DNA of 64,000 nt from an uncultured Planctomycetota bacterium (GCA_963845755.1 CAWJTV010000028.1:96001-160000); one strand, 5' to 3'; shown: positions 7,995-53,453, counted from the first letter of the stretch. Translations and numbers: made by a program. The notes: generated by a model from the letters alone, not told the origin.

Positions 7995-8213
7995 ATGAGC
8001 ACACGGCGAATTCCTCGTGGTCAGCGGTTGGTCTTGTGTCTGAGTTTACTCGGGTTCCTGGGCTTGATGAGCGGTTGCTCTGAATCCAATCCGGTGGATG
8101 CGATCGGGCCGGAGGCAGCCAAGGAGAAAGGGCTGGCCCAGCAGAAAGCGCGTGAGAACGCGTTTGGTAAGGGTGGTAACCCGAAGAGCGAGAAAGGCGC
8201 GAAGAAGCAATGA
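7995..8213 (+). CDS. Small lipoprotein preceding a DUF1559 gene
   Basis: Basic N-terminus, hydrophobic core, lipobox MSG-C, short Lys-rich mature part; GAGG upstream. Confidence 0.75.
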   Translation: MSTRRIPRGQRLVLCLSLLGFLGLMSGCSESNPVDAIGPEAAKEKGLAQQKARENAFGKGGNPKSEKGAKKQ

Positions 8214-8650
8214 TCCGAGAAGGCTCGACTCAATCCAATCGGTTCCGTGTCGATCGGGCCAGTTGGTTGGGCTGCCTTCATGTCTCCGTATCGGGGTCGG
8301 CATGAGCTCAGTTAGCCCAGTGTTCGATCGATCGTTCGAGTCCGAGAAGATCCGAGATGTCCGTTCCGAGAGCACTGCGCCAATGTCCATCCTTACTCCG
8401 ACAGTCTTGCGTTTTCGGCAACTGGCGAAGGACCTTCCGTTGGACTTCTCGGTGCTTCGGCGTGCGAAGCTTGCCGATAGATCGTCGCTCACATTCCTGC
8501 TCGCACCCGTTCTTCGTGATCGATCCTGAAAGGGGTTTCGGTTCGGTCAACATTCGGGGACGCATTGGGGATCCCAAGACGTCCCATCCCCGTTCGTGAC
8601 ATCTTGAGTCGTTCGTTCTCACTTTCTTATCCCTGATTTGGAGCGCTCTC

Positions 8651-9820
8651 ATGACGGCGAGAATGCGTCGAGGATTCACTCTGATCGAACTCCTGGTCGT
8701 CATCGCGATCATCGCGGTGCTGATCGCGTTGTTGCTACCGGCGGTGCAGGCGGCCCGTGAGGCGGCCCGGCGCGCGCAATGCAGCAACAACCTCAAGCAG
8801 ATTGGTCTGGCGTTGCACAACTACCATCAGACCAACAACAAGTTTCCACAAGGTCATTCGCAGTCATTCGCCTATTTTTCGCATACCGCGTATGCCGGCT
8901 GGACCGAATGGAGTGCGCACTCCCAGATGCTCGGTTACATGGAGGCGACCGCGATCTACAACGCGATTAATTTCAGCTTCTGCGGCGGCTACGGCAACGC
9001 GGGCTACATCAACGTGACGGCGTACACCGCTGTCATCAGCTCGTTCATGTGTCCCTCCGACACGAATGTGGACAAGGGCGGCCCGCCGGCCGGCATCAAT
9101 GGACTCAACAATTGGGGAGGCAACGGCACGTATCCGCCGAACATCTGTGACTACCGCGGCAGCGTGGGCACCACGACCGCTCCCTACAATTGGGGGGCGG
9201 GCTTTGCATGCTGCCAGCCCGACCCGTTCAATCTCTCGGGTGGCACAGGGTCCGTCTCGGCGGCCTCGACCGGGATGTTCGCCTACTGGATCAGTAACGG
9301 CATCCAGGACTGCACCGACGGCACCTCGAATACGATTATCTTCGCCGAATCGCTGGTGGGCGACCCGACGAACATCGGTTCGGCGACGCTCTCGCACAAT
9401 AACAACTCGGTGACGAACGTCACCGCCGCCGCAGTGGCCCAAGCCTATGACGCCAGCACGCTCAATTACCAGCAGGTCGTCCTGCCGGCTCTCAACGCCT
9501 GCACCGCGGCGTACAAGTCGAACAGCAACGTCACCACGGATAACGGCAACCGCTGGGGCTGGGGCGCCGTGGGAATTACCTTATTCAACACGGTCATCCC
9601 TCCGAATTTCGCCCCGTGGAACGCGTGCCGCTCTTCGTGCCCGGGTTGCAGTCCCGATGATTCGATGTTCTCGATGGCCCAGAGCAACCACCCCGGTGGA
9701 GTCAACGTACTGATGACAGACGGCAGCGCCCGCTTCATCAAGAGTACGATCAGTCCGTTGACCTGGATGCAGTTGGGCACGAAGGCCAATGGCGAAACCA
9801 TCAGCTCCGACTCTTACTGA
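8651..9820 (+). CDS. DUF1559 prepilin-type N-terminal cleavage/methylation protein (H-X9-DG domain)
   Basis: [61 protein letters not shown]. Confidence 0.95.
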
Positions 9821-9869
9821 CCTGACCGGAGTCCATCGGGCACTTCGGGTCCGTTTCTTTCGGAAGAAT

Positions 9870-9911
9870 GGCTAAGGTCCGGCCGAGTCCCAGGCTCGGC
9901 CAGCCTTGGCC
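9870..9911 (+). other. Intercistronic GC-rich hairpin
   Basis: GGCTAAGG..GGCCGAGTC-CCA-GGCTCGGCC..CCTTGGCC; no U-tract. Confidence 0.55.
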
Positions 9912-9937
9912 TTCGGATTCGCGTTGTCGAGACATTG

Positions 9938-12853
9938 ATGCGTGGTCGGTTGATGATTGTCTTCCTTGCGCTCGCGGCCATGGTGGCGGCGTGGCTCGGG
10001 GCTCGCGCGCTGGGAGCACGGCAGTTCGGGGGTGAACTGCGCCTCGCTCGAGGTGAATTCGCAGCGCGGCGGTTTGCCAAGGCGCGTGAGCGGTTAGCGC
10101 GGCTCGCCCAGCGCTGGCCGGGTCAGGGTGAAGTCGAGTATCTGCTCGGGAGTTGTGAGAAGGTTCGGGGCCATCTCGACGCCGCGATGGCGGCGTGGGA
10201 TCGGGTACCCGAGAACGCCAACGAAGCACCCCTGGCGGCTCTCTCGCAAGGCCGGCTCGCGCTGGAGCTGGGTCGCTATCGGTTCGCCGAGGACCGTTTG
10301 ACCCGCGCCAGCCGTGCGGAAGCCGAGGTCGCCGACGAGGCGTGGCGGCTTCTCGAATGGCTGTACTGGATGACCGGTCGGCGCGACGAGAATCGCGAAA
10401 TCCTTGATCGGAGGGTCGAGCGGACAGAGGACCCGTCGAAGACGCTCCGCGTCCTGTGGAGCGAGTACCAGGACCCCTATCCGGTCGATGGCATCGCGTA
10501 CGCACTGGCCAAGGCCAACAAGTCCGCTCCGGACGACGATCGCGTCTGGCTGGGACTGGCCGATTTGGCAACTCGCAGCGGGCGGTTCGACGAGGCCGAC
10601 AACTGGCTGACTCAGTGCCAGCGGGCCCATCCCGATGATCCGGTGGTCTGGCATGCTCGGCTCCTGTGGGCCAAGGCCGCTGGCCAGCCCGAGGAACTCG
10701 TCCGAGCGGCGACCCACTTGCCCGCTTCGCGGGTGTCCCAGTCCACGATGCTGGGTCTCCGCGCCTGGCTGGCCGCGCGGAACGGCGACAGCCGGGCGGA
10801 GCGATCGGCCCTCGAGGCACTCATCGGCCTCCAGCCTGGAGATGATGCGGCTCTGGAGCGACTTGCCGACCTCGCCGCACAGACCGGCGAGCTCGATCGG
10901 GTCGCCGAGCTGAGACGCCGCAAGGCGGCGATCGACAGGGCCCGCGATCACTACCGGGCCCTGATCAACCTGCCCGACATGGCGCCCCACGCGGCCGAGT
11001 TCGCCTGCGTCGCGGAGGCGATCGGCTGGTGGTTTGAAGCCAAAGCCTGGTGGGCCCTTGCGGCCCGGCGCGACCGAGCCCTCGCCCGTGAGGCGTCCGC
11101 CTCGATCGCCCGCTTGACCCGGGCCGAGCCGGCCTCCGCGCCCGACGGCCAAACGCTGGCCGACCTCCTCGGTCCGAGCCGTCCGAGGACGTCCGACCTG
11201 GTCCCGGCCCCGCCCGGCCTGAGGATCCCCACGTTCGTGGACGACGCCGAGCACCGGGGTCTGACGTTTACTTTCAACAACGGCCGCTCGGAGCTTTTCC
11301 AGCTCCCCGAGACCATGAGCGGAGGCGTGGCGCTCTTGGATTTCGACGGGGATGGACGACTCGATGTCTATGTTGTCCAAGGAGGACCGTTCCCTCCACC
11401 CACGGATCACCCTCCCTTCGGGGACCGCCTCTTTCGCAACTGCGACGACGGCCGGTTCGTGGACGTGACCGACGCATCGGGACTGGCCGGGCTGCCCGGC
11501 GGCTACGGCCACGGCGTGGCTGTGGGAGACTGCGACAACGATGGCCGCCCGGACCTCTTCGTGACCCGATTTGGCTCCTATGCCCTCTATCACAATCTCG
11601 GCCAGGGTCGGTTCGAGGACGCCACCTCTCGGGCAGGGCTGGGCGGCGACCGCGACTGGCCGACCTCGGCGGCCTGGGCCGACTTCGACAACGATGGCGA
11701 TCTCGACCTCTACGTCTGCCACTACCTGAAATGGCACGCCCAAGAGCCAGCCGTTTGTGACTATGCGGAGCATTCCAAACCGGGGCATATGTATTGCGAC
11801 CCGCGCCAATTCCCTGCGGTGCCAGACCACATCTTCCGCAATGATGGTGGCCGGTTCATCGATGTGACCAAAGAGGCGGGCATCGGCGACCGCCAGGGGC
11901 GCGGCTTGGGGGTCGTCGCGGCCGATCTCGACGGCGACGGCAAGACCGACGTGTTCGTAGCCAACGATACGACGGCCAATTACTTCTTTCGCAACCGCGG
12001 CGGCTTCCGCTTTTCGGAAGAAGGCGTCGAGTCGGGCCTTACTTCCAGCGCGGAGGGGGGCGATCTGGCGGGAATGGGGATCGCCTGCGGTGACTTCGAT
12101 GGCGACAGCCGCCTCGACCTGGCCGTCACCAATTTCTTCAACCAATCGACCACCCTCTATCACAATCACGGGGGTGGGATCTTCAGCGACCGGTCCACCG
12201 TCACAAGACTCGCCGCGTTGACTCGGCAAGTCCTCGGCTTTGGGCTCGCCGCGCTGGACGCCAACAATGACGGCTGGCTCGACCTGGTCCAGGCCAACGG
12301 CCATGTCACCGATTACCGTCCCACGATCCCGCGCGAGATGAAAGCCCAGCTCCTCCTCGCCGACGGCGCGGGGCGGTTCGTCGATGTCTCCGACCGCGCC
12401 GGACCGCCCTGGCAGGTCCTCCGGATCGGGCGCGGACTGGCCGTTGGCGATCTGGACAACGACGGTCTCACCGACGTATTGCTCGTCAGTCAGAACGGTC
12501 CGCTGGCAGTACTCCATAATCGATCCCAAGTTCGAGGCCATTTTCTGACCCTGACGCTGGAGGGAACCGCCTCGAATCGAGACGCCGTCGCCGCGCGGGT
12601 GGCCGTCACCGCCTCGGGTCGGACTCAGGTTGCGGCCCGCTTCGGCGGCGGCAGCTATCTGTCGGCCTCGGATCCCCGTCTCCACTTCGGGCTCGGCCCT
12701 GCGGAAGTCGTCGATCGCGTCGAAGTCACCTGGCCGTCGGGACGGCGGGACTGCTATCAGAGCCTAGCAGCCGATACGGGCTACCGGTTCCGCGAAGGAG
12801 AGGCGGCCCCGACTCGCCTCCGTGGTTTCGGGGCCAGCGCGACCGATCAGTGA
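9938..12853 (+). CDS. TPR + FG-GAP/ASPIC-UnbV (CRTAC1-like) protein
   Basis: N-terminal anchor, helical TPR-like region, ETMSGGVALLDFDGDGRLD, several DxDxDG repeats, GGGSYLSASDPRLHFGLG, VTWPSG. Confidence 0.92.
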   Translation: MRGRLMIVFLALAAMVAAWLGARALGARQFGGELRLARGEFAARRFAKARERLARLAQRWPGQGEVEYLLGSCEKVRGHLDAAMAAWDRVPENANEAPLAALSQGRLALELGRYRFAEDRLTRASRAEAEVADEAWRLLEWLYWMTGRRDENREILDRRVERTEDPSKTLRVLWSEYQDPYPVDGIAYALAKANKSAPDDDRVWLGLADLATRSGRFDEADNWLTQCQRAHPDDPVVWHARLLWAKAAGQPEELVRAATHLPASRVSQSTMLGLRAWLAARNGDSRAERSALEALIGLQPGDDAALERLADLAAQTGELDRVAELRRRKAAIDRARDHYRALINLPDMAPHAAEFACVAEAIGWWFEAKAWWALAARRDRALAREASASIARLTRAEPASAPDGQTLADLLGPSRPRTSDLVPAPPGLRIPTFVDDAEHRGLTFTFNNGRSELFQLPETMSGGVALLDFDGDGRLDVYVVQGGPFPPPTDHPPFGDRLFRNCDDGRFVDVTDASGLAGLPGGYGHGVAVGDCDNDGRPDLFVTRFGSYALYHNLGQGRFEDATSRAGLGGDRDWPTSAAWADFDNDGDLDLYVCHYLKWHAQEPAVCDYAEHSKPGHMYCDPRQFPAVPDHIFRNDGGRFIDVTKEAGIGDRQGRGLGVVAADLDGDGKTDVFVANDTTANYFFRNRGGFRFSEEGVESGLTSSAEGGDLAGMGIACGDFDGDSRLDLAVTNFFNQSTTLYHNHGGGIFSDRSTVTRLAALTRQVLGFGLAALDANNDGWLDLVQANGHVTDYRPTIPREMKAQLLLADGAGRFVDVSDRAGPPWQVLRIGRGLAVGDLDNDGLTDVLLVSQNGPLAVLHNRSQVRGHFLTLTLEGTASNRDAVAARVAVTASGRTQVAARFGGGSYLSASDPRLHFGLGPAEVVDRVEVTWPSGRRDCYQSLAADTGYRFREGEAAPTRLRGFGASATDQ

Positions 12854-13114
12854 CGAGTGACTTCATTACGATCACTCGTTGATTCGAAGCGATGCGTGCC
12901 GGCACGGCCCTTGTGCCCGAAGGAGGTGGAGATCCGGGCCGGCAGATCAAATCATGGAGGTCCCCGTAGACGGGGCTGATTCCTTTTTGTACAGTAGAGG
13001 GATGTGACTCACCCTGGTTTGATCCTCTTCGCTGAGGAGCCGTACGTGGCCAGGATCGGATCGGCCCCTTTCCACCACCCCTTGTTGGTTTTAGTCGCAC
13101 CCGTTTGAACGCCG

Positions 13115-15094
13115 ATGATCAGTCGTACCGCTGTCGTCACGAAAGCCGAAACGGTCGGCCAGCCGACTCCCGACCGGGCAAACGGGTTCGGTTCCGTCTC
13201 GCTCTTGCTCCTGTCGGCCTGGTCCGGCCTGGTCGGCGGCTCGCTGGAAGTGGCCACGATCGTGGTTCGCCATGAGTTCTTTGATCCGGATCAAATCTGG
13301 AGGATCAGCCGACACGTCTTCTGGCTGATCCCTCTTTCGAACCTCGCGGTCTTGCTAACGCTGGGATTGCTCGGTTGCGGAGTGATCCCGGTCTGGCCGC
13401 ACCGTGGTCGATGGGTGTTGACGCGGGTGTTGGTCGCGCTTCTGTTTCTGCCCTCGTTTCTGGTGGCCTTTCCCAGGATCTATACTCTGGCGTGGTTCGT
13501 GGTGACCCTGGGGATGGCCACGCGGCTCGTTCCGCTTCTCGAACGTGCGAGTCGAGGATTTCGGCGATTCGTCCTGGTCAGTTTGCCGATGGCCGTCGGG
13601 ATTGTGGCGATTCTGGGGGCATCGCTATGGGTCGGCGACCTGAAGAAGCAACGGCGCGAGAATGAGCGATCCTTACCGCCGCCGGGGACGCCGAACGTCC
13701 TGTTGATCGTGATGGACACCGTCACCGCGGGCCACCTGGGGCTGTATGGCTACGACCGGGCGACCAGCACAACCTTGGCCGAGCTCGCCGAGCGCGGCAT
13801 CCTCTTCGATTCGGCCCGGGCGGCCTCGTCATGGACGCTGCCATCTCATGCGACCATGTTTACAGGACGATGGTTGCACGAGCTCTCCGTCGGCTGGATG
13901 ACGCCGCTTGACGAGACTCATCCGACGCTGGCAGAGTCCCTCGGCGACCGGGGGTACGCGACGGCTGGGTTCGTCGCCAATACGGCGTATTGTGCTGCCG
14001 GTACGGGGCTGGGCCGCGGCTTCACGCGATACCAGGATTTCATCTTTCCCGAGCTCACCACGCTCAAGACGGCGGCACTGGCAAGCCGGGTACTGGAAGG
14101 CCTGCGCATGACCGTCTATTATGCGGAAGATTGGCTGAAATCCGCCGGGCTCCTCCCCTATGTGGACCGCCTCGTGCGGGCGCTGGACGCCGATCGCAAG
14201 GGGGCGGCGGTGGTCAATCGCGAGCTTCTGGACTGGCTCTCACACCGCACGCAGCCGGAGCGGCCTTTTTTCGCTTTCTTGAACTACAATGATGCTCATT
14301 ATCCCTACGAATTGCCGCCGGGAAGGCCCCATCGTTTCGGGGCCGAGCCGACCGATGATTATCAGCGCCTCCTGATCGGACATTGGGGGGACCTCGACAA
14401 GACGACAGTCTCACCTGCGGGTGTCACATTTGCCTCCGCCGCTTATGACGATTGCATCGCAGACCTTGATGAGCAGCTCGGGAAGCTGATCGACCAATTG
14501 AACCAACGCGGGGACCTGGAGCGGACGTGGCTGATTGTCACCTCAGACCATGGCGAGGGCTTCGGTGAGCACCCTGGCTATTTCTGCCACGGCATAAGTC
14601 TGTATGATACCGAGCTGCACGTTCCGCTACTGATCATTCCGCCGGGGGGCAGCGCGACGAAGCAGTCCGTCAAAGAGGCGGTCAGTCTGCGCGACCTGGC
14701 GGCGACGATTGTCAACGTGGCCGGTCAGGAGGGAGGCGCGCCATTTCCCGGGGTTTCTCTGGCACGGTTCTGGAAGAGGCCCGGGCCGGTGGCGATGGTC
14801 CAGCCGCCATCGGCGTCACCCTCGCTCGCCGAGTTGGTCCGGGACCCGCACCAGCGCGATCAGGGGGGCTTGCCCAGGCCACTCCTTCCGCAGGCAGCCG
14901 TCAAGAACTCAGAGTGGTCCTATATCCGTCGAGAGGGCGATGACCGCGAGAAGTTGTTCTATTTGCGCGAAGACGCGAAAGAGCAGCACAACCTGGCCGA
15001 CGATCCGTCGGCACAAACAATGCTCCGACGAATGCGAGCCGAGCTGGAGCGTCTCACCGGCGGGCCGCTGGTGCCGGGGCGCTTCAGTAAATGA
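13115..15094 (+). CDS. Membrane-anchored sulfatase-like (AlkP superfamily) hydrolase/transferase #1
   Basis: About 5 N-terminal TMs, PNVLLIVMDT, WTLPSH, DAHYPY, SDHGE, HVPL. Confidence 0.9.
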   Translation: MISRTAVVTKAETVGQPTPDRANGFGSVSLLLLSAWSGLVGGSLEVATIVVRHEFFDPDQIWRISRHVFWLIPLSNLAVLLTLGLLGCGVIPVWPHRGRWVLTRVLVALLFLPSFLVAFPRIYTLAWFVVTLGMATRLVPLLERASRGFRRFVLVSLPMAVGIVAILGASLWVGDLKKQRRENERSLPPPGTPNVLLIVMDTVTAGHLGLYGYDRATSTTLAELAERGILFDSARAASSWTLPSHATMFTGRWLHELSVGWMTPLDETHPTLAESLGDRGYATAGFVANTAYCAAGTGLGRGFTRYQDFIFPELTTLKTAALASRVLEGLRMTVYYAEDWLKSAGLLPYVDRLVRALDADRKGAAVVNRELLDWLSHRTQPERPFFAFLNYNDAHYPYELPPGRPHRFGAEPTDDYQRLLIGHWGDLDKTTVSPAGVTFASAAYDDCIADLDEQLGKLIDQLNQRGDLERTWLIVTSDHGEGFGEHPGYFCHGISLYDTELHVPLLIIPPGGSATKQSVKEAVSLRDLAATIVNVAGQEGGAPFPGVSLARFWKRPGPVAMVQPPSASPSLAELVRDPHQRDQGGLPRPLLPQAAVKNSEWSYIRREGDDREKLFYLREDAKEQHNLADDPSAQTMLRRMRAELERLTGGPLVPGRFSK

Positions 15095-15170
15095 TGCCGT
15101 TGGCCTCGCCCCGTCGGGGTTGCCGAATGCCGATGTGTGGGCTAACGCGGCCTTGCCGCAACCAAAAAGG

Positions 15171-15256
15171 GATTCCCGATTCGAGATTCCCGATTCAAGA
15201 AACCGGAAGCGTCTCCATCCTGAATGGGGAATGTGGAATCTTGAATGGGGAGTCGA
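15171..15256. repeat. Imperfect inverted repeat built of 7-bp units between convergent genes
   Basis: GATTCCC-GATTCGA-GATTCCC-GATTCAA ... GAATGGG-GAATGTG-GAATCTT-GAATGGG-GAGTCGA. Confidence 0.7.
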
Positions 15257-15287
15257 GTCCTTCCCAAACGCGCAAAACGCAGGGGCC

Positions 15288-16567
15288 CTACGGCGGAAGA
15301 CTCGATGTCGCCGGGGTTGCGCTCAACTGCCGGAGGCGCTGGCGGAGACCAGCGCGGCCAGGGTCTTCCGAGATCGCAATGGTCAGAAAGACTCGGGATT
15401 CGAACCGTCGACCGAGCACCTCGGCCAGCCGGGCGAGCTCCTCGGCGTCGCGGATGGGCTGATTCCGATCGTGGCGCTTCAGGTATCGCGCGAGCAGCCG
15501 GGCGATTTCCGTCTCGCGCGCATTAGTTCTGCGGCTTTAGCGGGCTGATGTTCCTTTTCCGCGAGGTCGGCCAACCGGGTCAGGGCCGTCACGTCGGCGG
15601 GGTTGGCTGTGAGCAACAGTTCCAGCTCGCGGCGTTCGGCGGCAAGATCGCCGCGCTGGGCGGCCAGCCAGGCATTGGTCCGATGGAGCCAACCGGCGAT
15701 CCGCTCGTTGGCGGGCCGGTGGTTCATGGCCAGAGTGACCACGTCGATCCGCCTGGTCGCGATGCCGAAGCGCAGGCAGGCTCGCCAGACCGGAACGTCA
15801 TCAGGCCGGCCGTTCCGGCACGCGTCCAGCCATCGTTGGGCCTCGTCGTAGGCCCCGGTGCGGATCGCCAGGTTGGCTCGCCCCAGCCAGACCCGATCGT
15901 CGTCGGGGGCAAGCTGCGCGGCGCGCTCGAGCGCGGCGCGGCTGGTCTCGACCGGAGTGGGCTTCAAAGTCAGCTCGATGTGCGCGCGGACCAGCTTGCT
16001 GGCCGACTCGAACGGATCGATTGCTGATGCGTTCAAATGTTCCCACCGATCCTCGATCAACCGCTCGGCTTCCTCGAGGCGCCCCTGGTCGCTATAGAGC
16101 GGTACGAGCAACAAGAGCAAGGCCGTTCCGTCGTTGCGAGGGTCCTGGGCGGCTTCGTTCGCGAGTCGCTCGGCGGCGGCGTATTGCCCGGCCTCTTCGA
16201 GCAGATGGATCCGGCCCTCGATGGCTTTTTGCCCGAACGCGCACCCCGGGACGACGCGTGCCCACGCTCGACCGGCCGCCTGGTTTCGCCCCCGGGCCAG
16301 CTCGCAGGACCCTAGAAGGTAAAGGGCCCTCCCGTTCGAGTCCGACGTCCACGACAAAAGTGCCTCGAGGTCACGGCAGGCGATGGAGAATCGACCGGAG
16401 ACGATTTCCGCTTCGATCTCGTCCATCGCGCTGCGATAGCGCCAATAGCTCCACCCGGCCCAGCCGGCCGCGACGAGCCCCGTTCCCAGGAGAAAGGCGA
16501 TCAGCAGCCTCCATCGTTGCCGGCTCCGGGCCATGGGGGCGCCGTTTGCCGCGTTGGTCACTGACAT
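15288..16567 (-). CDS. Membrane-anchored TPR protein (frameshift ~15515)
   Basis: ORF 15479..16609 plus C-terminal frame EIARLLARYLKRHDRNQPIRDAEELARLAE...SSLPP*; carries the PDDDRVWLG motif. Confidence 0.8.
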
Positions 16568-16574
16568 TGACAGC

Positions 16575-19872: not shown

Positions 19873-20031
19873 TTCCCCAATTGGATCAATCGGGCTGTCC
19901 GCATCAGGAGGACCGCCAGAGGGCCTAGTATCTTGGTGTTGCCACCCGACTCCGTGTTTCGTGGTGTCGCCGTTTAGAACCCCTGTGTAGGGGACCGTCC
20001 TTTTTCCTTTCATTTTCGCAGGACATCGCTC

Positions 20032-43324: not shown

Positions 43325-43376
43325 CCGACCCCGGTTCCGGCTGACGTTCCTCATCGTTCCGCGGCATGCGGGCGAA

Positions 43377-45383
43377 TCATTCCCGCCTCTTGTTCGATCG
43401 GTCTTCCCGAGCCGATAGGGGCTCCCCGGGAGAAGGCCCCTCGGCAACGAGGTCCTTGAGCCACTGCCGGTACGGCTTCAAGTAGGCCTTTTCGACCTCG
43501 GTCGAGCCGGGGTTGTGGGTCAGCACGTCGAGGAGCATCCGCCGAAAGTCTCCCACGACCTGCTTGCCCTCGGCGGAATCGATCAGGTTCACGCTCTCGA
43601 CCGGATCGCGACTCAGGTCGTAGAGCTGCTCGAGCCCCGAAGCCGTCGCGGATGTAGTGCCGGCCCGGGCCACCAACGACATCTGGACATCGCGGCGTCT
43701 GAGGCTCTTCTCGGCCTCCGGCTGCGAAACGCGGTCACGGTGGCGTGCTCGGAGAGGGCCGGCGTGATCTCCGGAGTAGCCTGTCCGGGTGCGAGGACCA
43801 GTAGGCCGCCAGCGAGCTGCCCCGGGAATGGTGAGCCGGCCGAGAGACCCAACTGGTCGACCACGGTGGCGGGCAGGTCGCGCAGGCTGACGGGTTCGGC
43901 CACGACGCGGCTCGCGGGCGCATCGGGAGAGAGGATCACCAGCGGCACGGCGATCTCGTCGAGGAAGACGTTGTTGGCGTGGAGGAAAACGCCATGATCG
44001 CCGAACGATTCGCCGTGGTCGGAGGTGATGATCACCACCGTGTTGTCGAGAAGTCCCTGGCCCTGGAGCTCGTCGAGGAGCTGTCCGAGCTGGTCGTCGA
44101 GGTAGGCGATGCAATCGTCGTAGCAGTCGCGGGCCATCCAGATGTCTCGATTCTGGAGGCTCTTCCACCCAGGATTCCCATAGTCGAGCAGGAACTCGGT
44201 AATCCCGCGGCGGCCGGGGCCTGATCCCGAAACGGCCCGCATAGCCCGCCGGCGGGATGTACGGCTCGTGGGCATCGAAGTAGTTCAAGTAGGCGAAGAA
44301 CGGGCGATCGCGTTGCCGATGGCGCAGCCAGTCCAGGAAGGAGTCGCTGATCGCGCTCCGCGTTGCGCGATTGCAAGCGGATCCATTTGGACTCGTAGAA
44401 GTCGCCGCGATAGACGATGTTCTCGAGGATCCAGCTTCCCGCGACCGTCCGGCTCAACAGCGACCGCGGGGTCAGCGGATAGTCCTCGAAATGGATGAAG
44501 CCTCGATCCAGCCTCGTCTCGTAAGTGCAGCAGAGGGTGTTCGCGGAAAACCCGGCGGTCTGATAGCCTCGTGAGGCCAGGTGCTCAGCCAGGGTGGGAA
44601 CCGGGGCATCGAGCGTGTATTTCCACTGCGAAATCACCTGGAACGGCCAGTGGCCGGTGAAGAAGCTGCTATGCGAGGGATAAGTCCAGGGGGCCGGCGC
44701 CAGGGCCATGCTGTATCGGACGCCCTTCCGCGCCCAACGCACCAGGTTGGGGGTCGTGTTCCGCGGATAGCCGTAGAGGCTCAGGTTGGCGGCCGGACGG
44801 CGTCCCACACGATCATGACGACGTTGCGGGCGTTGGAAGGCGGTGCCGGCAATCCGGCCATGCGCACGGTATTCCCGGACCGCGCGCCACCCGTTGAAAG
44901 CGCGGCCAGGATGACCAGCAGGCCAAGCAGTCCCGCCACGGAGTAACCACGCCGACCTCGGGCCGTTGATAATGCGCCGCGACGCCACCGCTGATCAGCC
45001 GGCCCAGTCCGGCGGCCAGGAGCAGGCTGGCGACGCCGTACAGGGGCATCCGCAGCAGGGCGGCCCAGATCGCGAGCGTCGCGAACAGCCACACGCCGCG
45101 CGCAGCGACATGGGCTTCGGCCGGAGCCGGTTGACCGCGGCCAGCAGCACTCCCGGGATCAGCAGCAGGACCACGTGCCCAACCGGAACGCTCCAGGGGA
45201 AATCGTGAGCGTTCGCATAGTTCTTCAGACCATTCCAGAAGTATTTCTTGAAGACGATGATGACCAGATCGAGATAACCACCGGCGAGGCCGAAGAGATC
45301 GCCAGCAGGATCGCGGCCGAGGGCGTGAGGCGGCTATGACCGGCCGGGTCCCGATTCCGCGGCTTTGGGGGAATGGTATCCAT
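43377..45383 (-). CDS. Membrane-anchored sulfatase-like enzyme #3 (multiple frameshifts)
   Basis: Fragments NVVMIVWDAVR, WTYPSHSSFFTG, YFDAHEPY, TSDHGE, VSLRDLPAT in successive frames. Confidence 0.8.
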
Positions 45384-45592
45384 CAAGGCTCGACCTTCAC
45401 GTGCGTTTTTCGGCGCAACATCGCTGGGCAACAGTGCCGTCGCTGTTCGACGGCTTGAGCCACGTAGGGTTGAGGCGCGATGGAGTCAGCGAGGAACCGA
45501 CCAGAGCCTGATTCCTACCGTATCACGTTCCAGGCGGCAGATCGAGAGATCCCGGCCAGGTGGTCCACTGTGCAACGGTCCGCTAGCGTTTC

Positions 45593-47568
45593 TCAGATGG
45601 GTGGGCGCGGGATCATCGACCCGAGCAACGTCAGGAGCTGTTTCTGATAGGCGGCAGCCACCTCGCCTGGGGCGCGATTGTCGCGGAGGAACAGGGCCAG
45701 CGCGTTGCGCAAATGGTTCAAAGTGGAGTCTCGCTCCGGCGCGTTCTTGAGGTCGCGAATCTCCGCGGGTCGGCCGCCAGGTCGTAAAGCTCCTCCGTAC
45801 CCCGGATATCGAGCAGGTAATGCAGGCCCTCGTCCACAACGGACGTCGTGAATCCCCGCTGGTTCGGCCCTCGGCCGCGCTGGGGGATGATCACCAAGGG
45901 GATATCGACCTCCGAGAGCGCTTTCGAGACGCGTCGATCGTCGCGGAGCCGCGCGGCGTCCGCCACGATTCCGCGAGCGAGCGGCCGGGGAAGGGCGAGC
46001 CGCCACCCAGTCCGATCAGGTCGACTACCGTCGCCGGCAGATCGCGGAGGCTGACCGGCTCGGATACCGTGCGACCGGCCGGCGCCGCCGACGAGATGAT
46101 CAGCAAGGGGACATGCACCTCTTGCGAGTACAGGCTGAAGCCGTGGTTGAACACGCCATGCTCGCCGAACTGCTCGCCGTGATCGGAAGTGATGATCACG
46201 AGCGTATCGCGGAGCACCTCGCGCCGTTCGAGCTCATCGAGGAGCGCGCCCACTCGCCGATCAAGGGCCGCGATGCAGTCGTCGTAGGAATCGCGAGCCA
46301 GCTCGATGTCCTGTTCGCTGAGCTTGAGCTTGTCCCGATCCCAGTATTCCACCAGCATGGCGTGGTCGCGGGACGACTCGGGGCGGAGCCCGAAATGTGT
46401 CCCCTCGTCCTGGGGCGGCAGGAACGGCTCATGCGCATCGAGATAGTTCAAGAACGCGAAGAAGGGCCGTCCGGAATCCCGTTGCCATGACAGCCAGTCC
46501 AGGAACGATTGGTTGATCCCGTGGGCATCCCGCGATAGGGATCGGATCCACTTGACGGCGTAATAGTCGCGAGGACTTCGCAAGTTCTCGAGCACCAACG
46601 GCCCGGAAGCGTGCTGCCCAGGACGGTCGTGGCGTGAGCGGATAGTCCTCGTAATGGATGAACCCCCGGTCCATGCCGGACTCGTAGCTGCACCAATGCG
46701 TATTGGCGGCGAACCCGGCGGTCAGATAACCGCGGGTGGCGAGGAACTCGGCGAGCGTGGGATAGGCCGGGTCAAGGTCGGCTCCCAGTGTGCGCCCAGG
46801 GTCGAGGGCCACTGGCCGGTCAGGAACGAGCAATGCGACGGGAACGTCCAAGGGGCGGGCGCCAGGCCCCAATCGAACCGCACGCCTTTCTTCGCCCATC
46901 GGTCCAACTGGGGCGTCGTCTCGCGGTGGTAGCCGTAGAGGCTCAGGCTGTCGGCGCGGACGGTGTCCATGACGATCAACAAGACGTTCTCGCGCCGGCA
47001 GGCGGACCGGCAGCCGCGCGATCGCCCGGGCTTCCGCCAGAGCTTCCCTCCGCAGAGAAACCGTGGCCGTCGACGACTACGAGGACAAGGATAGACAGAC
47101 TGTAGCCGGCAAAACGCCGGAACCCCGCGGCGTGCCGTGCGAGCCAGCGGCTCAACAACCGCGCGAATCCGATCGCGACGAACAGGCTCGCCACCCGTAG
47201 AACGGTATCCTCAGCATCGGCCCCCAGACCGCTACCGTGGCGAACAGAAAGACCGCGAATCGGCACGAGATCCTCCCAGGACGGAGCCGGTTCATCCCGG
47301 CGACCAGCAGTCCAGGAATCATCAAGATCGCCAGGTTCGCGAGCGGCACGGCCCAGCGGAAGTGCCTCCCCTGCTGGTAATACAAGGACGCATGGAATAG
47401 GTCCCGCTTCAAGAAGATCATCCCGAGATCCAGGTAACCGCCGACCAGGCCGAACCACGCGGCCAGTACGAGGGCGGCAATCCAGGATAGGGCGACGGTC
47501 GCCTGGGTCATCGCTTCGGGCTCGGTGCTACCGAGGTCAGGTTGCGTGGTCGTTCGCGGCGGATTCAT
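45593..47568 (-). CDS. Membrane-anchored sulfatase-like enzyme #4 (multiple frameshifts)
   Basis: TMs, LIVMDTVRAD, WTFPSHCSFLTG, YLDAHEPF, TSDHGE. Confidence 0.8.
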
Positions 47569-49564
47569 GGATTGAACCGTTGCGGCGTCAACGGGCCGGC
47601 CGTGAGGCGGCCAGGGCTTGCCGCATTTGTTCCAGGGTCGGCTGCATGGCCGGGTTGCCGGCGAGGTTGTGCAGCTCCTGCGGGTCGTCGCGCAAGTGGA
47701 AAAGCTCTTCGCGAACGTCTCCTTCCCGGCGGATGTAAGTCCAGTCGCCTTCGGGTCAATGCGACCAACGGCCATCGGGGCTTGAGCAATTGCGCGGGGT
47801 CCGGGTTGAGCCCGTCGAGCGGGACCACTTCGGAGAGCGCCGCATCGGTCGCGAGGCGGATCGTCGGGCGCCGCCGGGGATGATCGCTTGCTGAACCGGG
47901 CCAGCGACTCGCCCGGGAAAGGGAGATCCTTCTGGAGACCCAGTCCCTCGACGATCGTCGCCGCCAGGTCCCGGAGGCTCACCGGCTCGGTGACGATCCG
48001 TCTCGACGGGCTCCCTGCCGTGGCCGGTGGGACGATCAGAGGGGAACATGAAGCTCCGTCTGGTAGAGGCTCGTTCCGTGGCGGAACACGCCGGGATGTT
48101 CGCCGAAACTCTCGCCGTGGTCCGCGACGACGATGAGCCAGGTCCGGTCGAGGATGGCACGACGCTCGAGCTCGTCGATCAACCGTCCCAGTTGCTCATC
48201 GAGGTCCGCGACACAATCGTCGTAAGCGTCGCGAGCCAGAGCGATCTGCTGCCGGCGAAGGCCGGTTCTGCGGCCAGCAGCAACGTATCCTCGAATGGGG
48301 TCGATCTCATGGTCGTCGTCGGGCCTGACCCCCGAACCGATGGATGCCCATCTCCGGGAGCTGATAGGGATGGTGGGCGTCATAGTAATTCAGGAAGGCG
48401 AAAAAGGGCCGATCCGGTCTGGCGGCGAGACAGCCAGTCGAGGAACTCGCGATTGACGACCGCCGCCCCTTTGCGGTCGGAATTGAAAAGCCCACCAGAG
48501 TTGATTCACCGCGGGCTTCAGGAGATCGAAATCCAGCCGGTCTTCCAGGAAACGCTCGACCGCCTGGAGCCCGTCCACGGGACGATTGACCAGGACGGCC
48601 GCCTTGAACGCAGTGAGCCGCGGAAAGATGTAGTCTCGATAGACGGTAAAACCCCGGTCCAGTCCGGAGTCGGACGCACAATACCAGTAATTGGCGGCGA
48701 AACCGGCCGTCGCATAACCGTGCGCCCCCAGGATACTCGGCCAGGGTCGGATACGGTCCCGTCGAGGGGCGTGATCCAGCCGGCGGAAAGCTCGTGAGGC
48801 CATCGTCCTGTAAACATGCTTGCATGGGATGGCAGCGTCCACGATGAGGTCGCCTGCACGCGATCGAAGCGAATGCCGCGGGTCGCCAGCTCATCGATCG
48901 TCGGGCTGGTGGGACGGTCGTAGCCGTAGAGGCTCAGATGGTCCGCGGCGACCGTGTCCAGCACGATCAAGAGCACGTTGGGGCTCCCGGCGGCGGTAAC
49001 GGCCGCCCCGCCTCGCGCCACTCCTTGATCCGGTCCTGCCCCCAGAGCGATGCCGCCAGCAAGGGAACCAGACCGGCGACGACGGGGAAGCTGAGCCGGA
49101 CGAGCCGCCGGAAGCCGGCGGCACGCCGTTCGAGTAGCGGGACCAGCCGCGTCGCGATACCCAGGGCCAGGAGGAACCCGGCGGGACCGAAAATCCGCGG
49201 AGAGGCCGCCCAGATCGGGGGAAGCAGGGTCAAGGTGCAAAGCAACCGCGGTGCCAGCCAACGGCCGCGGCGGCCCCACACGACGAGCAGCGACAGCAAC
49301 ACGCCCAGCGGTGAGGAAGATCAAGAGATCGGTCAGCGGGACCAGCCAGACAAAATGGCGGCTCATCCAGTAGAGATGATTCAAGTCGAACGTTCGCTTG
49401 CGCAGTACGGTGACTCCGACCTCGAGCAGGCCCGCGACCAGCCCGCACCAGGCCGAGAGGAGCAGAAAGCGCCAAGAGCCCAGTCCATCCGCGGTAAGAT
49501 CCTCGGATCGCGAACCGGCTGGGCTGGCCTCCTCGAAGACAGCGATCCGACTCGACATCAGCAT
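47565..49564 (-). CDS. Membrane-anchored sulfatase-like enzyme #5 (multiple frameshifts), close paralog of #1
   Basis: LLLSAWCGLVAGLLEV, PNVLLIVLDT, WTLPSHASMFTG, YYDAHHPY, ADHGE; ends RLTAGPLTPQRFNP (cf. RLTGGPLVPGRFSK in #1). Confidence 0.8.
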
Positions 49565-49824
49565 CAGCCCATCGAGAGATAGGGAATCCAGCGCGGGGTG
49601 AATGCATCATGCCAAAGGACCTGTGGGGAGTCAAGGCTCCCAGGCAGCGATCAGTGCTGAGAAATCCGCCCCTCGGGCGGTCGGCCGGCACGCGGAAGCC
49701 GCGTGGATGGCGACCGAGGGCCGGCAAAGGCCGTAAGGGGACGGGCTCGAAGGCGGCTTCGTGCGACCGCTATCAGACCTGAAGAACCCGGCTGAACCTG
49801 GAACACGCCCACCCGCACCGGCGG

Positions 49825-51510
49825 CTAACTGCTGTCAGTCGGATCTGGATCGGCCCGGCTCCGGCAGCTTGGAGCACGTCGGCCAGTGTCGAAACCGCAG
49901 GCTCTCCAACAATCGTTGCGCATGTTCTTCAACGAGCCGAACAGCTCCACGGCCGTTCGCTTCCCTGCTCTTGGGCCAGGTGCCGCAACAGGCTCCCTTC
50001 TCCACAGTTGCAACAGCAGATGGGGGTAGGAACGGAAATCGTCGGCCGGCCAGCATCTGTGGCTGTAGGCATGTTCCAGGTTCAGGCCACTGTTCTTGTG
50101 GGGTTCAATTGCACGTTCTGCTCGCGCCAGCGTGCCTCCCTCCGTTGGTCGCTACTTCACCACAGTCTCGTGGCTCAAATCCAGAGAGGTCACCCACGAC
50201 CATTCCGTCTGCTTCCCTCCTTGCATCTTGGTGCACTCCAGAGCGTTGATGGTCCAGTCCCGACCATCACTGTCCCTGTAGTGCAGGCCGTTGGATCCAG
50301 CATAGACCTGCCGGACCCTTGCGGCGTATCCGTTCCACGCGCTGGTCGGGACGCAACCGCAGCAACCCCTGGAAATCCTCCCAGAGGGCGGGAAGTCGTC
50401 CAGGCTGAAACGTGTAAATGTAGTCGCATCGATAATCTTGGCGACCTAGGAATCCTTCTCCGCAGGCATACAGGCCGTCACCGCCGAGGCAAATCCGCAA
50501 CTGCGGGAACTCGATCCGCAACTTCTCCACCAGGCGTCGCAAGGCCTTCAACTCGCAATCCTGCTTGATCCGTTCCGCGCTGGCACCGCTGGGGCACTGG
50601 CGACGTCGTGGTTGTCGATGAACTCACTGGCGATCGAGATGACCGTGCCGGCGCCAGCACCTTGGCCTCCAGCACCTGGTGCATATATAGCGTCGTCTCA
50701 CCGTGCCGCTGGGTAGGCAATCGTCGCAATGCCGGGAGTGAAACACCAGATAGCCGAGCCGTCAATCAAGACGACGAACCACCCTGCAGCCGCACCGCGT
50801 CGAGCCTTGATGCGGATCAACCGCTGGACCATCCGCTGCCGCAACCCGGCGATGGGGTCGGGGCCGATTTTCCCCAGGAAGTACTCCAAGGTCTGGTTCA
50901 CCGGCCGGCTCTACTTCACAGTACCCGCAGACGATTGAGATTGGGCAGGACCTCCGGGCCGTCGGTGTTCAACTGGTAGTCCAGTTGGCGCCGGCTGCTC
51001 AACTTGCACAGGAACAAACTCAGCCCCCACCACAGCAGGAACCGCTTGTGGTAGATCACCAAGGGGGCAAACGCGGGTCATGGATCGCATCGATCCAGGT
51101 GTTGAGATCGGGGAAGAAGTGACCCAGGGTTCGCACCGGGATAAGTCCGATGTTCAGCGTCGTCCCCGCCGCCGCTTTCGGTGCGAGACGTGGCCCTGGA
51201 TCAAGGCCAGGGTCAACTGGCTGATTTCGTGGATGAGGCCTTTGAGACGTTGGTGTTTATTGCACCCATTCTTGGACCTCCGTGAGCAGGTCCTGGGGCA
51301 CATACACCGTGCGAGTTTTTACCCCCCTCCGAGAAGGTGAGGTGGTGGGCGGAGTGCAACGGGCCACCGTGGTGGCAGGCCGGAGGGCTGGCCGCAACGT
51401 TTCTGCACCTGGGCCAGGCTGGCCGCCAGGAGCGGCCCAGCCGGAGCCAGTTGCTTGAGGCGGCGGTCGAGCATCCGACGGACCAGCGTGGGGTGGCTCG
51501 GCACATGCAT
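49825..51510 (-). mobile_element. Degraded insertion sequence: small Cys/His accessory ORF (DUF6788-like) plus DDE-type transposase fragments
   Basis: KRCGQPS..CHHGGPLH..KTRTVYVP; then DPR, LIDGS, HQVLEAK, KQDCELKA, GDGLYA, LNLEHAYS in shifting frames; ends not defined. Confidence 0.7.
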
Positions 51511-51784
51511 CGATGGGCCCCTGGAACTTCCGGTAAGTGGACCTTATACCGGGAAAGGCCCGAAAAGTCATGAGGTGGAAGAAAAAAATTGAGGGCCTAG
51601 GATGGTCGGGCAATTCAACAGAGGTTCTACTCGGGACTTACGCTGCCGTCAAGGTGCGACAAATTCCCCAATTCCTCAGAGCTGGGCAGCGATTCGCGTT
51701 GCTCACCCCGGCCTGAAGGGGACATACTGGTCAAGGGAGGCGAAAGCTCGGGCGGTCTGAAAACCTGGTGGCGAGGCAGAGTGA

Positions 51785-53153
51785 ATGAGCAGGAATGCGC
51801 GGTGGTGGCTGATCGTCTTGCTGGCCGTCGTCGTTGGATCGATCTGGACAGGCTGGAAAGCTTGGGAGATCCGGCGCGATCGGAAGGCCATGGCGGACGT
51901 CCGGAAGGGATCCAGGAGCGGAGACACGGCACCGCCGCGCGCGAAAGTTGAACGCGATGCTGACACGGGAACCTGGCTGGGGAGAGGCGGCCTACCTCCT
52001 GGGAACCTGTGAACAGGCAGCGGGGTCGGGAACAGGCCGCCAAAGAAGCCTGGATTCGAGTGTCGATGGATTCTCCGTTTGCGCCTCGGGCGATACAGGC
52101 CCTGATGGATCTGGAGGTGCGAAGCGGGCGGCTCGCCGACGCCGAGCAGCTGATCCTACGGGCGATGAATGATCCTCGGATTGATGGATCCGGCTTGCCA
52201 CTTTACCTGGGACCCATCTACACGCTGCAAGGTCGCGGCGAGGAGGCGGAGCGGTCGGTCGAGGCGCGATGGGACCATTTGAACGCCCTGGGACAAGGAG
52301 CTTCCGAGAAGGCGATCAACCTGGCTCGGTTGCACAACGAACTCCAACACAATACTTTGCCGGTCGATCTGATCCGGACTTTCCTGGATCAGTCCGGTAA
52401 GTCGGCGCCGGAAGACGATCGAGTCTGGCTGGGGCGGGCCAACCTGGCGATCCGCGTCGGTGCTTACAGCGACGCGGCGCGGTGGCTCGATGCCTGCTTG
52501 CGGCGGCGCCCGCGGATCTCCCAGTCTCGCGCGCCCGGCTAAGGTGGGCCATGGCGACGAACCGTATCGCCGAGGCGAGGGAAGCTCGTGAAGCATCTTC
52601 CGGTCGAGGAGGCGACGCCTGCCCAGATCCCAAAACTGTCGGCCTGGCTCGCCAATCGTCGCGGGGATCGCGTGTCGGAGCAGCGCGCCCTGGAACGACT
52701 CATCGAGGCCGATCCCATCGATTTCGCGGCCCTTGACCGACTGGCCGGACTGGCCATCGAGGAGGGCCGTCCTGCTCAGGCATCCGATCTGCAACGCCGG
52801 AAGACCGAGATCCTTCAACTTCAGAATCGATACCAGGCACTCTATCAGCATAACCAGCCGATTCGCAATGCGGAGCAGATGGCCGGGCTGGCCGTGCGAC
52901 TCGGCCGTGGTTTCGAGGCTCGCGTGTTCGGAACTCTGGCCGTCGCGGCAGACCCTCACCGCGATGATTTACGGCGCCAACTCACCAGGCTCAACCAACA
53001 GGTTCAAACGGGCGATGCGAGGGGGCAAACATGGAGGATGTGCTCGCCGCCGAGTTCGAATCCGTCACGACCTCCTCACCCTCAACGCGCTCGCCCTCAT
53101 CAACTCGGGACGTCTCGCTGGCCCCGACTCCGCGTACCGACATCCCCGAATGA
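51785..53153 (+). CDS. Membrane-anchored TPR protein (several frameshifts), paralog of 15288..16567
   Basis: TM, AAYLLGTCE, EARWDHLNA, PEDDRVWLGRANLAIR, NQPIRNAEQMAGLA. Confidence 0.78.
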
Positions 53154-53204
53154 CCCAAGCGGGCGTATCCCGGCAGACGACAACTCATCGTCGTCCGAGA
53201 GCGA

Positions 53205-53453
53205 TCAGGCGGTTCGCCGGACCTGTCGATTCTCATCGCCCTGCCCGCTGGCCGACTCCGTCTGGTTCCCGCTGCTAATCGTTTCACCCTTAGATCGTTC
53301 GAAGCCCTTCTTCAGATTCCTCGAACTCGTATGGAAGCATCGCGCAATGAAGCGGAACGGTGCGCGACCGACCATCATGATGAAACCCATGGCAGCCGCC
53401 AGCAACGAGGCGACAGGAAGGACAACCTCCGGAGAGAAGTAAGCGAGAATCAT
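53205..53453 (-). CDS. Small single-TM peptide
   Basis: MILAYFSPEVVLPVASLLAAAMGFIMMVG followed by a basic segment. Confidence 0.55.
   Translation of the reverse strand: MILAYFSPEVVLPVASLLAAAMGFIMMVGRAPFRFIARCFHTSSRNLKKGFERSKGETISSGNQTESASGQGDENRQVRRTA

Follow-up and report, generated by a model that had tools for sequence, protein, structure and literature searches.

Between positions 7995 and 53453 of a 64,000-nucleotide stretch of DNA from an uncultured Planctomycetota bacterium (GCA_963845755.1, CAWJTV010000028.1:96001-160000; the whole stretch is called the window here), genes for DUF1559 proteins recur together with genes for very small lipoproteins, TPR proteins and membrane-anchored enzymes of the alkaline-phosphatase superfamily. 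We found that the linkage between these genes is real and conserved and lies far above chance, pointing to an undescribed envelope system. Our leading reading, which we put forward tentatively, is a substrate capture-and-processing module that is present in many copies and is specific to the Isosphaeraceae. A preliminary description of the window had proposed a surface appendage with its own decorating enzymes. The co-occurrence of the genes, the prepilin leader and the lipoprotein pairing that it named held up, but a PptA-type identity of the enzymes, a PilY1 identity of the propeller and the GT-C-like and spermidine-synthase-like genes as recurrent partners found no support.

DUF1559 is among the largest function-unknown protein families of the Planctomycetota. 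In Planctopirus limnophila it is reported as the largest paralog group, with 68 genes, two of them essential (PMC10632474), and one plasmid-borne copy has been reported in Isosphaeraceae (PMC5352709). In the literature searched, supplements aside, we found no description of DUF1559 gene neighbourhoods or of this gene set. A reproducible set of partners makes concrete experiments possible: besides an assayable enzyme, it offers a propeller, a TPR protein, and two small components, one a lipoprotein of tiny size and the other a membrane protein. The source genome is that of a soil bacterium (14.27 Mb in 49 contigs, completeness 87.9%).

Gene linkage in the source genome

Six-frame translations of the whole genome were searched by jackhmmer, with profiles started from the window proteins. 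These searches identified 130 loci for DUF1559, 28 for the membrane domain of the enzymes, 61 for the FG-GAP/ASPIC-like propeller and 7 for the family of the polytopic membrane protein at 38310-39920; by Pfam, with fragments counted, there were 163 matches to DUF1559 and 36 to UnbV_ASPIC. Distances between families were compared with 300 random placements. A DUF1559 locus was found within 3 kb of 10 of the 28 enzyme loci (random mean 1.8, maximum 6), within 6 kb of 17 (mean 2.9, maximum 8) and within 10 kb of 20 (mean 4.3, maximum 12). At 6 kb, 21 of 61 propeller loci had a DUF1559 neighbour (random mean 7.0, maximum 13) and 9 of 28 enzyme loci had a propeller neighbour (mean 1.4, maximum 6). 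When neighbouring enzyme loci were merged, 13 of the resulting 15 neighbourhoods held a DUF1559 gene. Co-occurrence relative to the expectation from family size had been set beforehand as the refuting test of the proposed gene set, and it exceeded that expectation in this genome and in 31 other assemblies.

The same linkage was seen from the side of DUF1559. Among the open reading frames (ORFs) within 4 kb of a DUF1559 gene were 19 of the 56 belonging to the enzyme family, against a baseline of 8%, 35 of the 163 in the TPR/propeller cluster, 16 of the 88 DUF1501 ORFs (same baseline) and 4 of the 10 members of a T2SSE ATPase family, as well as an ABC permease. Because single-linkage clustering of these neighbours yielded a giant cluster of 1031 ORFs and clusters of antisense ORFs, named families alone were used. 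The relationship is asymmetric, in that most enzymes lie near a DUF1559 gene and the DUF1559 loci with an enzyme close by are a minority of the 130.

We then placed the enzyme-associated DUF1559 genes on a FastTree phylogeny of 96 DUF1559 ORFs, from which ORFs with fewer than 240 aligned residues, most of them frameshifted, were excluded. The 11 ORFs within 6 kb of an enzyme required 9 state changes, compared with a mean of 10.6 after shuffling, and 29 of 500 shuffles were as low. The DUF1559 partners of the enzyme therefore stem from many branches of the family.

Conservation of the linkage in other genomes

An alignment of eight enzyme paralogs (A1) was used to scan one genome per species, and 553 stretches encoding relatives of the enzyme were recovered. 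From the 80 best of these, 75 loci with flanks of up to 10 kb were obtained. They belong to 31 assemblies, which where a family was labelled were mostly Isosphaeraceae, including Aquisphaera insulae JC669, which carries the module in loci L032 and L071, and a Paludisphaera genome. Scanned with the profiles used for the source genome, 28 of the 75 loci had a DUF1559 gene within 1.5 kb of the enzyme, and this number rose to 44 at 3 kb, 50 at 5 kb and 51 at 10 kb. DUF1559 density was 1.45 genes per 10 kb over the first kb, 0.8-0.9 over the two that follow and 0.0-0.16 at 5-10 kb. At least one enzyme-DUF1559 pair within 3 kb occurred in 22 of the 31 assemblies.

Of the 70 loci in which 1.5 kb or more of sequence was available upstream of the enzyme, 34 had a divergent TPR gene within the first 900 bp, and a propeller gene was present anywhere in the locus in 28 of 75. 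The 75 loci hold 97 enzyme genes, 55 of which have a DUF1559 gene within 3 kb, located upstream on the same strand (20), downstream on the same strand (15) or on the opposite strand (20).

The membrane domain of the enzyme (residues 1-202) was found 1-27 times per genome in 96 of the 120 further genomes from this order and family, and in 1 of 200 other genomes sampled across the phylum. It also matched 637 representative clusters, among 1.84 billion, at E≤0.001.

DUF1559 proteins resemble pilins in sequence signals and in a structural model

The window encodes three DUF1559 proteins on the plus strand. DUF1559_1 (8651-9820, 389 aa; PF07596 1e-45, N_methyl 3.5e-8) is a prepilin-type H-X9-DG protein, DUF1559_2 (20032-21192, 386 aa) shares 66% identity with it, and DUF1559_3 (approximately 40431-41522) is read in three frames. 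In all three, a class III signal, G-(cut)-FTLIE, with Gly at -1, Phe at +1 and Glu at +5, leads into a hydrophobic helix. With PF07963 at 3e-8 and TIGR02532 at 32 bits (cut-off 16.3), the prepilin leader claimed for these proteins is canonical. The Pfam family PF07596 was matched at 157 and 168 bits (cut-off 23.3), and TIGR04294, which describes the H-X9-DG C terminus, was matched by the two intact genes at 38 and 36 bits (cut-off 19). The genome encodes three A24 prepilin peptidases (PF01478) and T2SSE ATPases.

An AlphaFold2 model of DUF1559_1 built from 32 sequences (alignment A2; pLDDT 76, pTM 0.79) consisted of a 52-residue N-terminal helix and a C-terminal sheet. Foldseek returned no match to this model in the PDB at E≤0.001. 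An exhaustive structure aligner returned 18 chains at Z≥2, with low Z scores throughout, and all of them were type IV pilins or pseudopilins, with PilA4 (Z 4.2, 122 residues aligned), EpsG (Z 3.9) and PulG (Z 3.0) ranking highest. On this model, DUF1559 has a pilin fold. The solute-binding fold that the Pfam name SBP_bac_10 implies was also considered, and it found no support.

DUF1559 proteins thus appear to share the class III signal, the helix and the fold of type II secretion pseudopilins and type IV pilins (GspG/PulG/EpsG, PilA, PilE), a likeness drawn here from sequence and model, with Z values of at most 4.2. Unlike those proteins, they are about 390 aa long, carry large insertions that separate the helix from the C-terminal sheet, end in the H-X9-DG motif and occur as about 130 paralogs per genome. 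Modular pilins have been described as carriers of effector modules (PMC8179133).

The genome contains two cobalamin riboswitches, each of which immediately precedes a DUF1559 gene in the same orientation, linking members of this family to a nutrient. The first (C43:105433-105620, minus strand) precedes a DUF1559 gene at C43:104484-105312 with a gap of 121 nt, and the second (C34:246640-246862, plus strand) precedes one at C34:247373-248517 with a gap of 511 nt. The chance of such an adjacency is about 0.3% for each. A thiamine pyrophosphate riboswitch was not found in this genome.

The membrane enzymes resemble sulfatases but have threonine at the formylglycine position

Five genes in the window encode membrane-anchored enzymes with a PF00884 domain. 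Enzyme 1 (13115-15094, plus strand, 659 aa; PF00884 3.3e-42) and enzyme 2 (16575-18755, minus strand, 726 aa), which share 42% identity, are intact. The remaining three are on the minus strand with approximate ends: enzyme 3 (about 43491-45300) and enzyme 4 (about 45897-47577) are frameshifted, and enzyme 5 (about 47571-49603) has several frame changes.

A model of enzyme 1 built from 63 sequences (alignment A3; pLDDT 89.7) showed five helices within residues 27-184, followed by the catalytic domain. The first 50 rows listed by Foldseek were all S1 sulfatases, choline sulfatase or phosphonate monoester hydrolases, the best at 3e-20, and the exhaustive aligner gave sulfatases and phosphonate monoester hydrolases Z scores of 35-39.4 over 354-399 residues (6hr5 39.4, 4upl 38.2). 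Full-length PbgA/YejM (6xlp) scored Z 33.4 over 463 residues (model residues 16-650), with a large root-mean-square deviation that reflects a different orientation of the domains, and was the sole chain aligned over both the membrane and the periplasmic parts. Other scores were 32.9 for the YejM periplasmic domain, 30.6 for LtaP, 28.8 for EptA, 28.2 for LtaS, 27.3 for MCR-1 and 23.3 for BcsG.

Sulfatases were closer in sequence as well. The closest solved relative in phmmer searches was a Ruegeria sulfatase (5e-21), compared with 1.9e-5 for EptA. Several NCBIfam models scored below their cut-offs: arylsulfatase 118 bits (cut-off 481), phosphoethanolamine transferase (NF028537) 34.3 and 54.4 bits (cut-off 500), the EptA equivalogs 25-51 bits (cut-offs 561-660) and LapC (NF038282) 27.9 and 24 bits (cut-off 825). 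The transferase scores, together with the greater closeness of sulfatases in sequence and fold, speak against placing the enzymes in the PptA/EptA family.

S1 sulfatases carry a C/S-x-P-x-R motif whose first residue becomes formylglycine. In the alignment to 4upi, enzyme 1 has W-T-L-P-S-H at this position, with Thr241 in the place of the formylglycine, and T241, S244 and H245 are invariant in all 63 sequences. Because neither Cys nor Ser occupies the position, no formylglycine can be formed. Threonine is the nucleophile used by the phosphoryl-transfer members of the alkaline-phosphatase superfamily. The Thr motif was present in 20 of the 27 full enzyme ORFs of the genome, the other 7 falling outside the search pattern, and residues G42, W70 and P73 of the membrane domain are conserved. 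Judged by sequence and model, the enzymes are thus S1 sulfatase- or phosphonate monoester hydrolase-like proteins with Thr in place of formylglycine. Public databases label their relatives as 'arylsulfatase A-like enzyme' or 'sulfatase', and because the formylglycine motif is missing, several hundred proteins carrying the 'arylsulfatase A-like' label are probably not sulfatases.

Three known groups are instructive for comparison. S1 sulfatases, choline sulfatase and phosphonate monoester hydrolases (6hr5, 4upl, 4uph, 7pth) share the fold of the catalytic domain and PF00884, but the module enzymes have T-L-P-S-H instead of C/S-x-P-x-R and an additional N-terminal domain of five transmembrane helices. 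EptA/PptA/MCR-1, LtaS and BcsG, which use a Thr nucleophile, have the same architecture of a membrane anchor and an extracytoplasmic domain with Thr at the nucleophile position, yet they are more distant than the sulfatases in both sequence and fold. PbgA/YejM/LapC has the same five transmembrane helices, a periplasmic alkaline-phosphatase-superfamily domain and a transmembrane-anchored TPR partner; unlike PbgA/LapC and LapB, the module pair falls below the family cut-offs, occurs in many copies, is linked to pilin-like genes and has a TPR part that is probably periplasmic.

TPR and propeller proteins

Two proteins combine TPR, FG-GAP and UnbV_ASPIC domains. The first (9935-12853, plus strand) is intact, with 972 aa, an N-terminal signal or anchor and a CRTAC1-like propeller; the second (21388-24374, plus strand) is read in three frames, with changes near 22290 and at 22555-22620. 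Both scored above the cut-offs for PF13517 (173 bits) and UnbV_ASPIC (PF07593, 66-72 bits), and the propeller part matched human CRTAC1 (PDB 9etn) at 2.9e-19. In a Pfam scan at E≤0.001, both proteins returned FG-GAP, UnbV_ASPIC and TPR families and no PilY1 family. The propeller is therefore CRTAC1-like and its earlier comparison with PilY1 is an analogy only. The module propellers share the FG-GAP repeats and the UnbV_ASPIC domain with CRTAC1/ASPIC-UnbV propellers; unlike CRTAC1, they carry an N-terminal TPR region that is common to the stand-alone TPR partner.

That partner is represented by TPR protein 1 (15479-16609, minus strand, 376 aa; Pfam TPR families), which shares 35 bp with the end of enzyme 2, and by TPR protein 2 (about 51785-52944, plus strand), which is frameshifted. 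Both are anchored by a transmembrane helix. In tblastn comparisons, the stand-alone protein was homologous to the first ~380 residues of the TPR-propeller proteins, with 36-37% identity to 9935-10918. The TPR-propeller fusion begins with a signal-like segment. CRTAC1-type propellers are extracellular, and the TPR of LapB is cytoplasmic. Because of the signal-like N terminus and the extracellular location of CRTAC1-type propellers, the TPR part of the module is probably periplasmic. Lys and Arg counts on either side of the TPR membrane helix (51 vs 74, over 22 rows with truncated N termini) left the topology unsettled. A complex prediction for the TPR domain (residues 28-400 of the 9935-12853 protein) with DUF1559_1 (residues 36-389) gave 0.01 and 0.00, values that the tool grades as no support and no verdict and that speak neither way on binding.

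TPR protein 2 is divergent from enzyme 5 across 2.2 kb. This interval (49603-51785) has a lower G+C content and holds no convincing gene; a short ORF within it (50267-50551, minus strand) is transposase-like by eye alone. Further TPR ORFs lie past the end of the feature (53724-55101, minus strand); they were matched by the drifted TPR profile but not by tblastn with the module TPR protein, and they are followed by HlyD/ABC/MacB-type exporter genes.

Small lipoproteins, a further membrane protein family and non-members

Each DUF1559 gene of the window lies beside a lipobox ORF of 71-83 aa, in agreement with the lipoproteins of about 70 aa described for it earlier. Lipoprotein 1 (7995-8213, plus strand, 72 aa) has the lipobox LMSGC and a Lys/Glu-rich tail and is located 437 bp 5' of DUF1559_1. 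Lipoprotein 2 (19621-19872, plus strand, 83 aa counted from the first start; lipobox LSSGC) is 5' of DUF1559_2 and has weak similarity to lipoprotein 1 (2e-7, tblastn). Lipoprotein 3 (42000-42215, plus strand, 71 aa; lipobox VMAGC) has an F-K-D-E-M-R-K..M-K motif and lies 3' of DUF1559_3.

The pairing is general. In the source genome, 23 lipobox ORFs (45-130 aa, with a G+C fraction at third codon positions above 0.6) lay within 300 bp of a DUF1559 gene, compared with 4.0 expected from their density, and in other genomes same-strand lipobox ORFs were found within 600 bp of 19 of 55 DUF1559 genes, compared with 2.0 expected. Many of those in other genomes have a common short F-K/R-D/E-x-M...K motif. 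This recurrence was established by a lipobox pattern search and not by homology; jackhmmer searches started from each of the three window lipoproteins found nothing beyond the query itself. Across the window and many further loci (L035, L053 and L068 among them), the tiny lipoproteins have little in common beyond the lipobox and a short Lys/Met-rich C-terminal motif such as G-M-K-E-F-M-Q..K.

A module family that the preliminary description had not listed is TMp, a Gly-rich polytopic membrane protein of 299 aa with about five helices (42355-43254, plus strand). In the source genome, 7 of its 8 loci are within 4.4 kb of a DUF1559 gene, and elsewhere 12 of the 75 loci contain it, every time within 2 kb of DUF1559. 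TMp had no Pfam or NCBIfam match, and its nearest Atlas clusters are unnamed planctomycete proteins.

Two further genes do not recur as partners. The polytopic membrane protein described as GT-C-like (38310-39920, minus strand, 536 aa) is present, but just 1 of its 7 paralogs lies within 6 kb of a DUF1559 gene (random mean 0.8, maximum 4). It had no Pfam or NCBIfam match, and sequence searches gave no relative in the PDB; among named Atlas clusters, those closest to it are Dpy19, STT3 and PMT_2 at 0.92, a score that is often reached by chance and gives a weak lead to a possible GT-C fold. The fused MFS/spermidine-synthase gene (35674-38560, three overlapping ORFs; PF01564 77 bits) likewise exists as described, with NF037959 at 56.5 bits (cut-off 40) in its first fragment and orthologs that are single ORFs of 883 and 955 aa. 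However, it has two copies in the genome, of which the window copy alone adjoins the GT-C-like gene, and in three other genomes the ortholog either lies ~4.7 kb off, sits on a different contig or could not be located.

Orthologs of DUF1559_3 occur in the same block in three loci from other genomes (L028, L060 and L071). Because the ortholog of the 38310-39920 gene pairs divergently with the DUF1559_3 ortholog in each of them, the block 38310-49603 is an old orthologous arrangement. L028 also holds an ortholog of lipoprotein 3.

A proposed capture-and-processing module and its alternatives

In our tentative reading, we infer a module that is anchored in the cytoplasmic membrane, faces the periplasm and consists of two physically associated arms. 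The capture arm would be a DUF1559 pilin-fold protein that, once cut by a prepilin peptidase, stays in the membrane through its hydrophobic helix or is raised by type II secretion-like machinery to form a short pseudopilus. It would act together with the tiny Lys/Met-rich lipoprotein and often with the Gly-rich five-helix membrane protein. The processing arm would be the enzyme with five transmembrane helices, an S1-sulfatase fold and Thr in the place of formylglycine, usually paired with the transmembrane-anchored TPR protein and often with the TPR-CRTAC1-like calcium propeller. The DUF1559 arm would bring a substrate to the membrane surface, where the enzyme would form a covalent Thr intermediate and cleave or transfer a phosphoester or, less likely, a sulfoester group. 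Paralogous modules would differ in their substrate, as polysaccharide utilisation loci do.

Because the nearest relatives of the enzyme are nutrient-processing esterases and the copy number varies from 1 to 27 per genome, the data fit substrate-specific capture-and-processing modules. The asymmetry of the linkage, the scattered origin of the DUF1559 partners and the presence of riboswitches on other members of the family suggest that DUF1559 serves as a general-purpose arm to which one specific kit or another is joined.

Several observations weigh against a capture-and-processing module. The riboswitches stand before other DUF1559 genes and not before those of the module, and no recognisable transporter or substrate-binding domain was found within the module. 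A five-helix membrane domain with conserved residues is typical of enzymes acting on membrane lipids (PbgA, EptA, LtaS) and not of scavenging hydrolases, and the five-helix domain of the module enzyme, with its conserved G42, W70 and P73, resembles them. Of the enzyme genes, 11 of 28 have no DUF1559 gene inside 6 kb. Because gene order and strand are variable (35 pairs on the same strand and 20 on opposite strands), co-transcription is not general. The 75 loci represent the top matches to a single paralog, with orthologous copies among them, so the counts overstate their independence. In addition, in the sole matching genome from outside the family, DUF1559, TPR and propeller genes are all absent within 10 kb of the two loci.

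The alternative that survives best, possible though unlikely in our view, is pilin decoration, in which the enzyme would move a phospho-headgroup from a membrane phospholipid via its Thr onto the co-encoded DUF1559 protein, still located in the cytoplasmic membrane, before assembly, as PptA does with PilE in Neisseria, where its action on a pilin has been reported (PMC4010543). The five transmembrane helices joined to a periplasmic alkaline-phosphatase-superfamily domain, the Thr at the nucleophile position, the conserved residues of the membrane domain, the alignment along the full length of PbgA/YejM, the Z scores of 27-31 for EptA, LtaS/LtaP and MCR-1 and the close linkage to a pilin-fold protein are all as decoration would have them, and the membrane domain and the Thr fit such a transfer from lipid to acceptor equally well as they fit capture and processing. 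Phosphoethanolamine transferase models, on the other hand, match far below their cut-off and the sulfatases are closer than EptA (5e-21 vs 1.9e-5 in sequence, Z 39 vs 29 in fold), 28 diverged paralogs are hard to reconcile with one modification step, no enzyme lies near most of the 130 DUF1559 loci just as no DUF1559 gene lies near the 11 enzymes named above, and the enzyme-adjacent DUF1559 genes are not a special clade. Because both cobalamin riboswitches directly precede DUF1559 genes, we prefer capture and processing to decoration.

The two remaining alternatives are less likely than either of these. One, which we regard as improbable, is that there is no functional coupling and that expanded families pile up in plastic regions by segmental duplication, so that proximity records history. 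By tblastn, the first-region copies 7995-12853 and 19621-24374 are close paralogs (66% identity for DUF1559 and 58-74%), and because of this, recurrence inside the window is partly local duplication. The enzyme genes also stand in tandem runs, gene order varies and many of the 75 loci probably go back, as orthologous copies, to a few ancestral arrangements. However, the linkage recurs in 13 of 15 separate neighbourhoods here and in 22 of 31 assemblies, it decays steeply with distance, within 3 kb, and other large families, such as DUF1501, are less enriched. Moreover, a single duplicated block cannot account for DUF1559 partners that belong to several distant branches of the family.

The other, envelope-lipid sensing or homeostasis by an enzyme-like protein in complex with a transmembrane-anchored TPR partner, as in the known PbgA-LapB complex (LapB-LapC; PMC11025326, PMC7240159) and with DUF1559 as a bystander, is very improbable: the TPR-enzyme pair is the most conserved one and overlaps in the window, PbgA aligns across both parts of the enzyme and the LapC and LapB models match weakly (for LapB, 19 bits with a cut-off of 363), but both matches are far under their cut-offs, 1-27 copies per genome ill suit a housekeeping sensor, the fusion of the same TPR to a CRTAC1-like propeller behind a signal-like N terminus suggests that it is periplasmic, and the strong DUF1559 linkage is left unexplained.

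A broader form of the capture-and-processing reading, which we consider doubtful, is that DUF1559 pseudopilins are the planctomycete counterpart of substrate-specific outer-membrane uptake, each paralog being a nutrient capture device and the modules being phosphoester or sulfoester utilisation loci. If this were true, each DUF1559 paralog would be pilus-borne or membrane-tethered and its neighbouring genes would be the substrate-specific kit, and the modules studied here would be built round an unrecognised class of membrane-embedded, sulfatase-fold enzymes with a Thr nucleophile.

Organisation of the window and reading frames

For the window, 58 ORFs were scanned against Pfam and 17 against NCBIfam, alongside ORF listings and tblastn with the intact proteins. 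Pfam and tblastn located all of the two TPR-ASPIC/UnbV proteins, two related TPR proteins and five membrane enzymes near the places where they had been reported, and the Pfam scan bore out the arrangement in two regions (7995-24374 and 35674-53453) with housekeeping genes between them. These encode a response regulator, a PIG-L deacetylase, purN, a Uma2 nuclease, a class I aminoacyl-tRNA synthetase, a purine nucleoside phosphorylase-type protein and a GFO/IDH/MocA oxidoreductase.

Genes read in more than one frame are TPR-propeller 2, DUF1559_3, enzymes 3-5, TPR protein 2 and the spermidine-synthase fusion, and a beta-ketoacyl synthase outside the feature (60764-61975) is read in several frames as well. 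The syntenic copies in a genome of the same genus (G246) have frame changes at different positions. A near-identical DNA contig from sequencing run X1 has one base fewer at 22555, exactly at the frame change of TPR-propeller 2, and another contig of this run has an extra G after 24983 (a single contig at a depth of ~3 in both cases). Most of the frameshifts are probably assembly indels, though some may be real pseudogenes. The shares for the sequencing runs were all ≤0.14, and uncovered parts of the stretch are uninformative.

Contigs from a soil RNA library with ~95-96% identity, which come from a relative and may include DNA carry-over, correspond to 8698-9245, 9406-9909 and 9928-10334. They span DUF1559_1 and the sequence 3' of it, reach into the beginning of the propeller gene and give a weak hint that this region is expressed. 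Terminator-like hairpins occur at 9837-9853 and 12959-12977 (plus strand), just 3' of the stop codons of DUF1559_1 and TPR-propeller 1, and the region as a whole has 26 terminator-like sites vs 12.3 in shuffled sequence; all of these are pattern matches only.

At Rfam gathering scores, a tRNA-His was the sole match over the window (35165-35238, plus strand, ~440 bp ahead of the start of the second region). Towards the start of the window, an ORF of 899 aa (1947-4646, plus strand) joins P-type ATPase domains to a Band 7/SPFH domain, which may be a real fusion or another frame error, and is followed by two further Band 7 genes.

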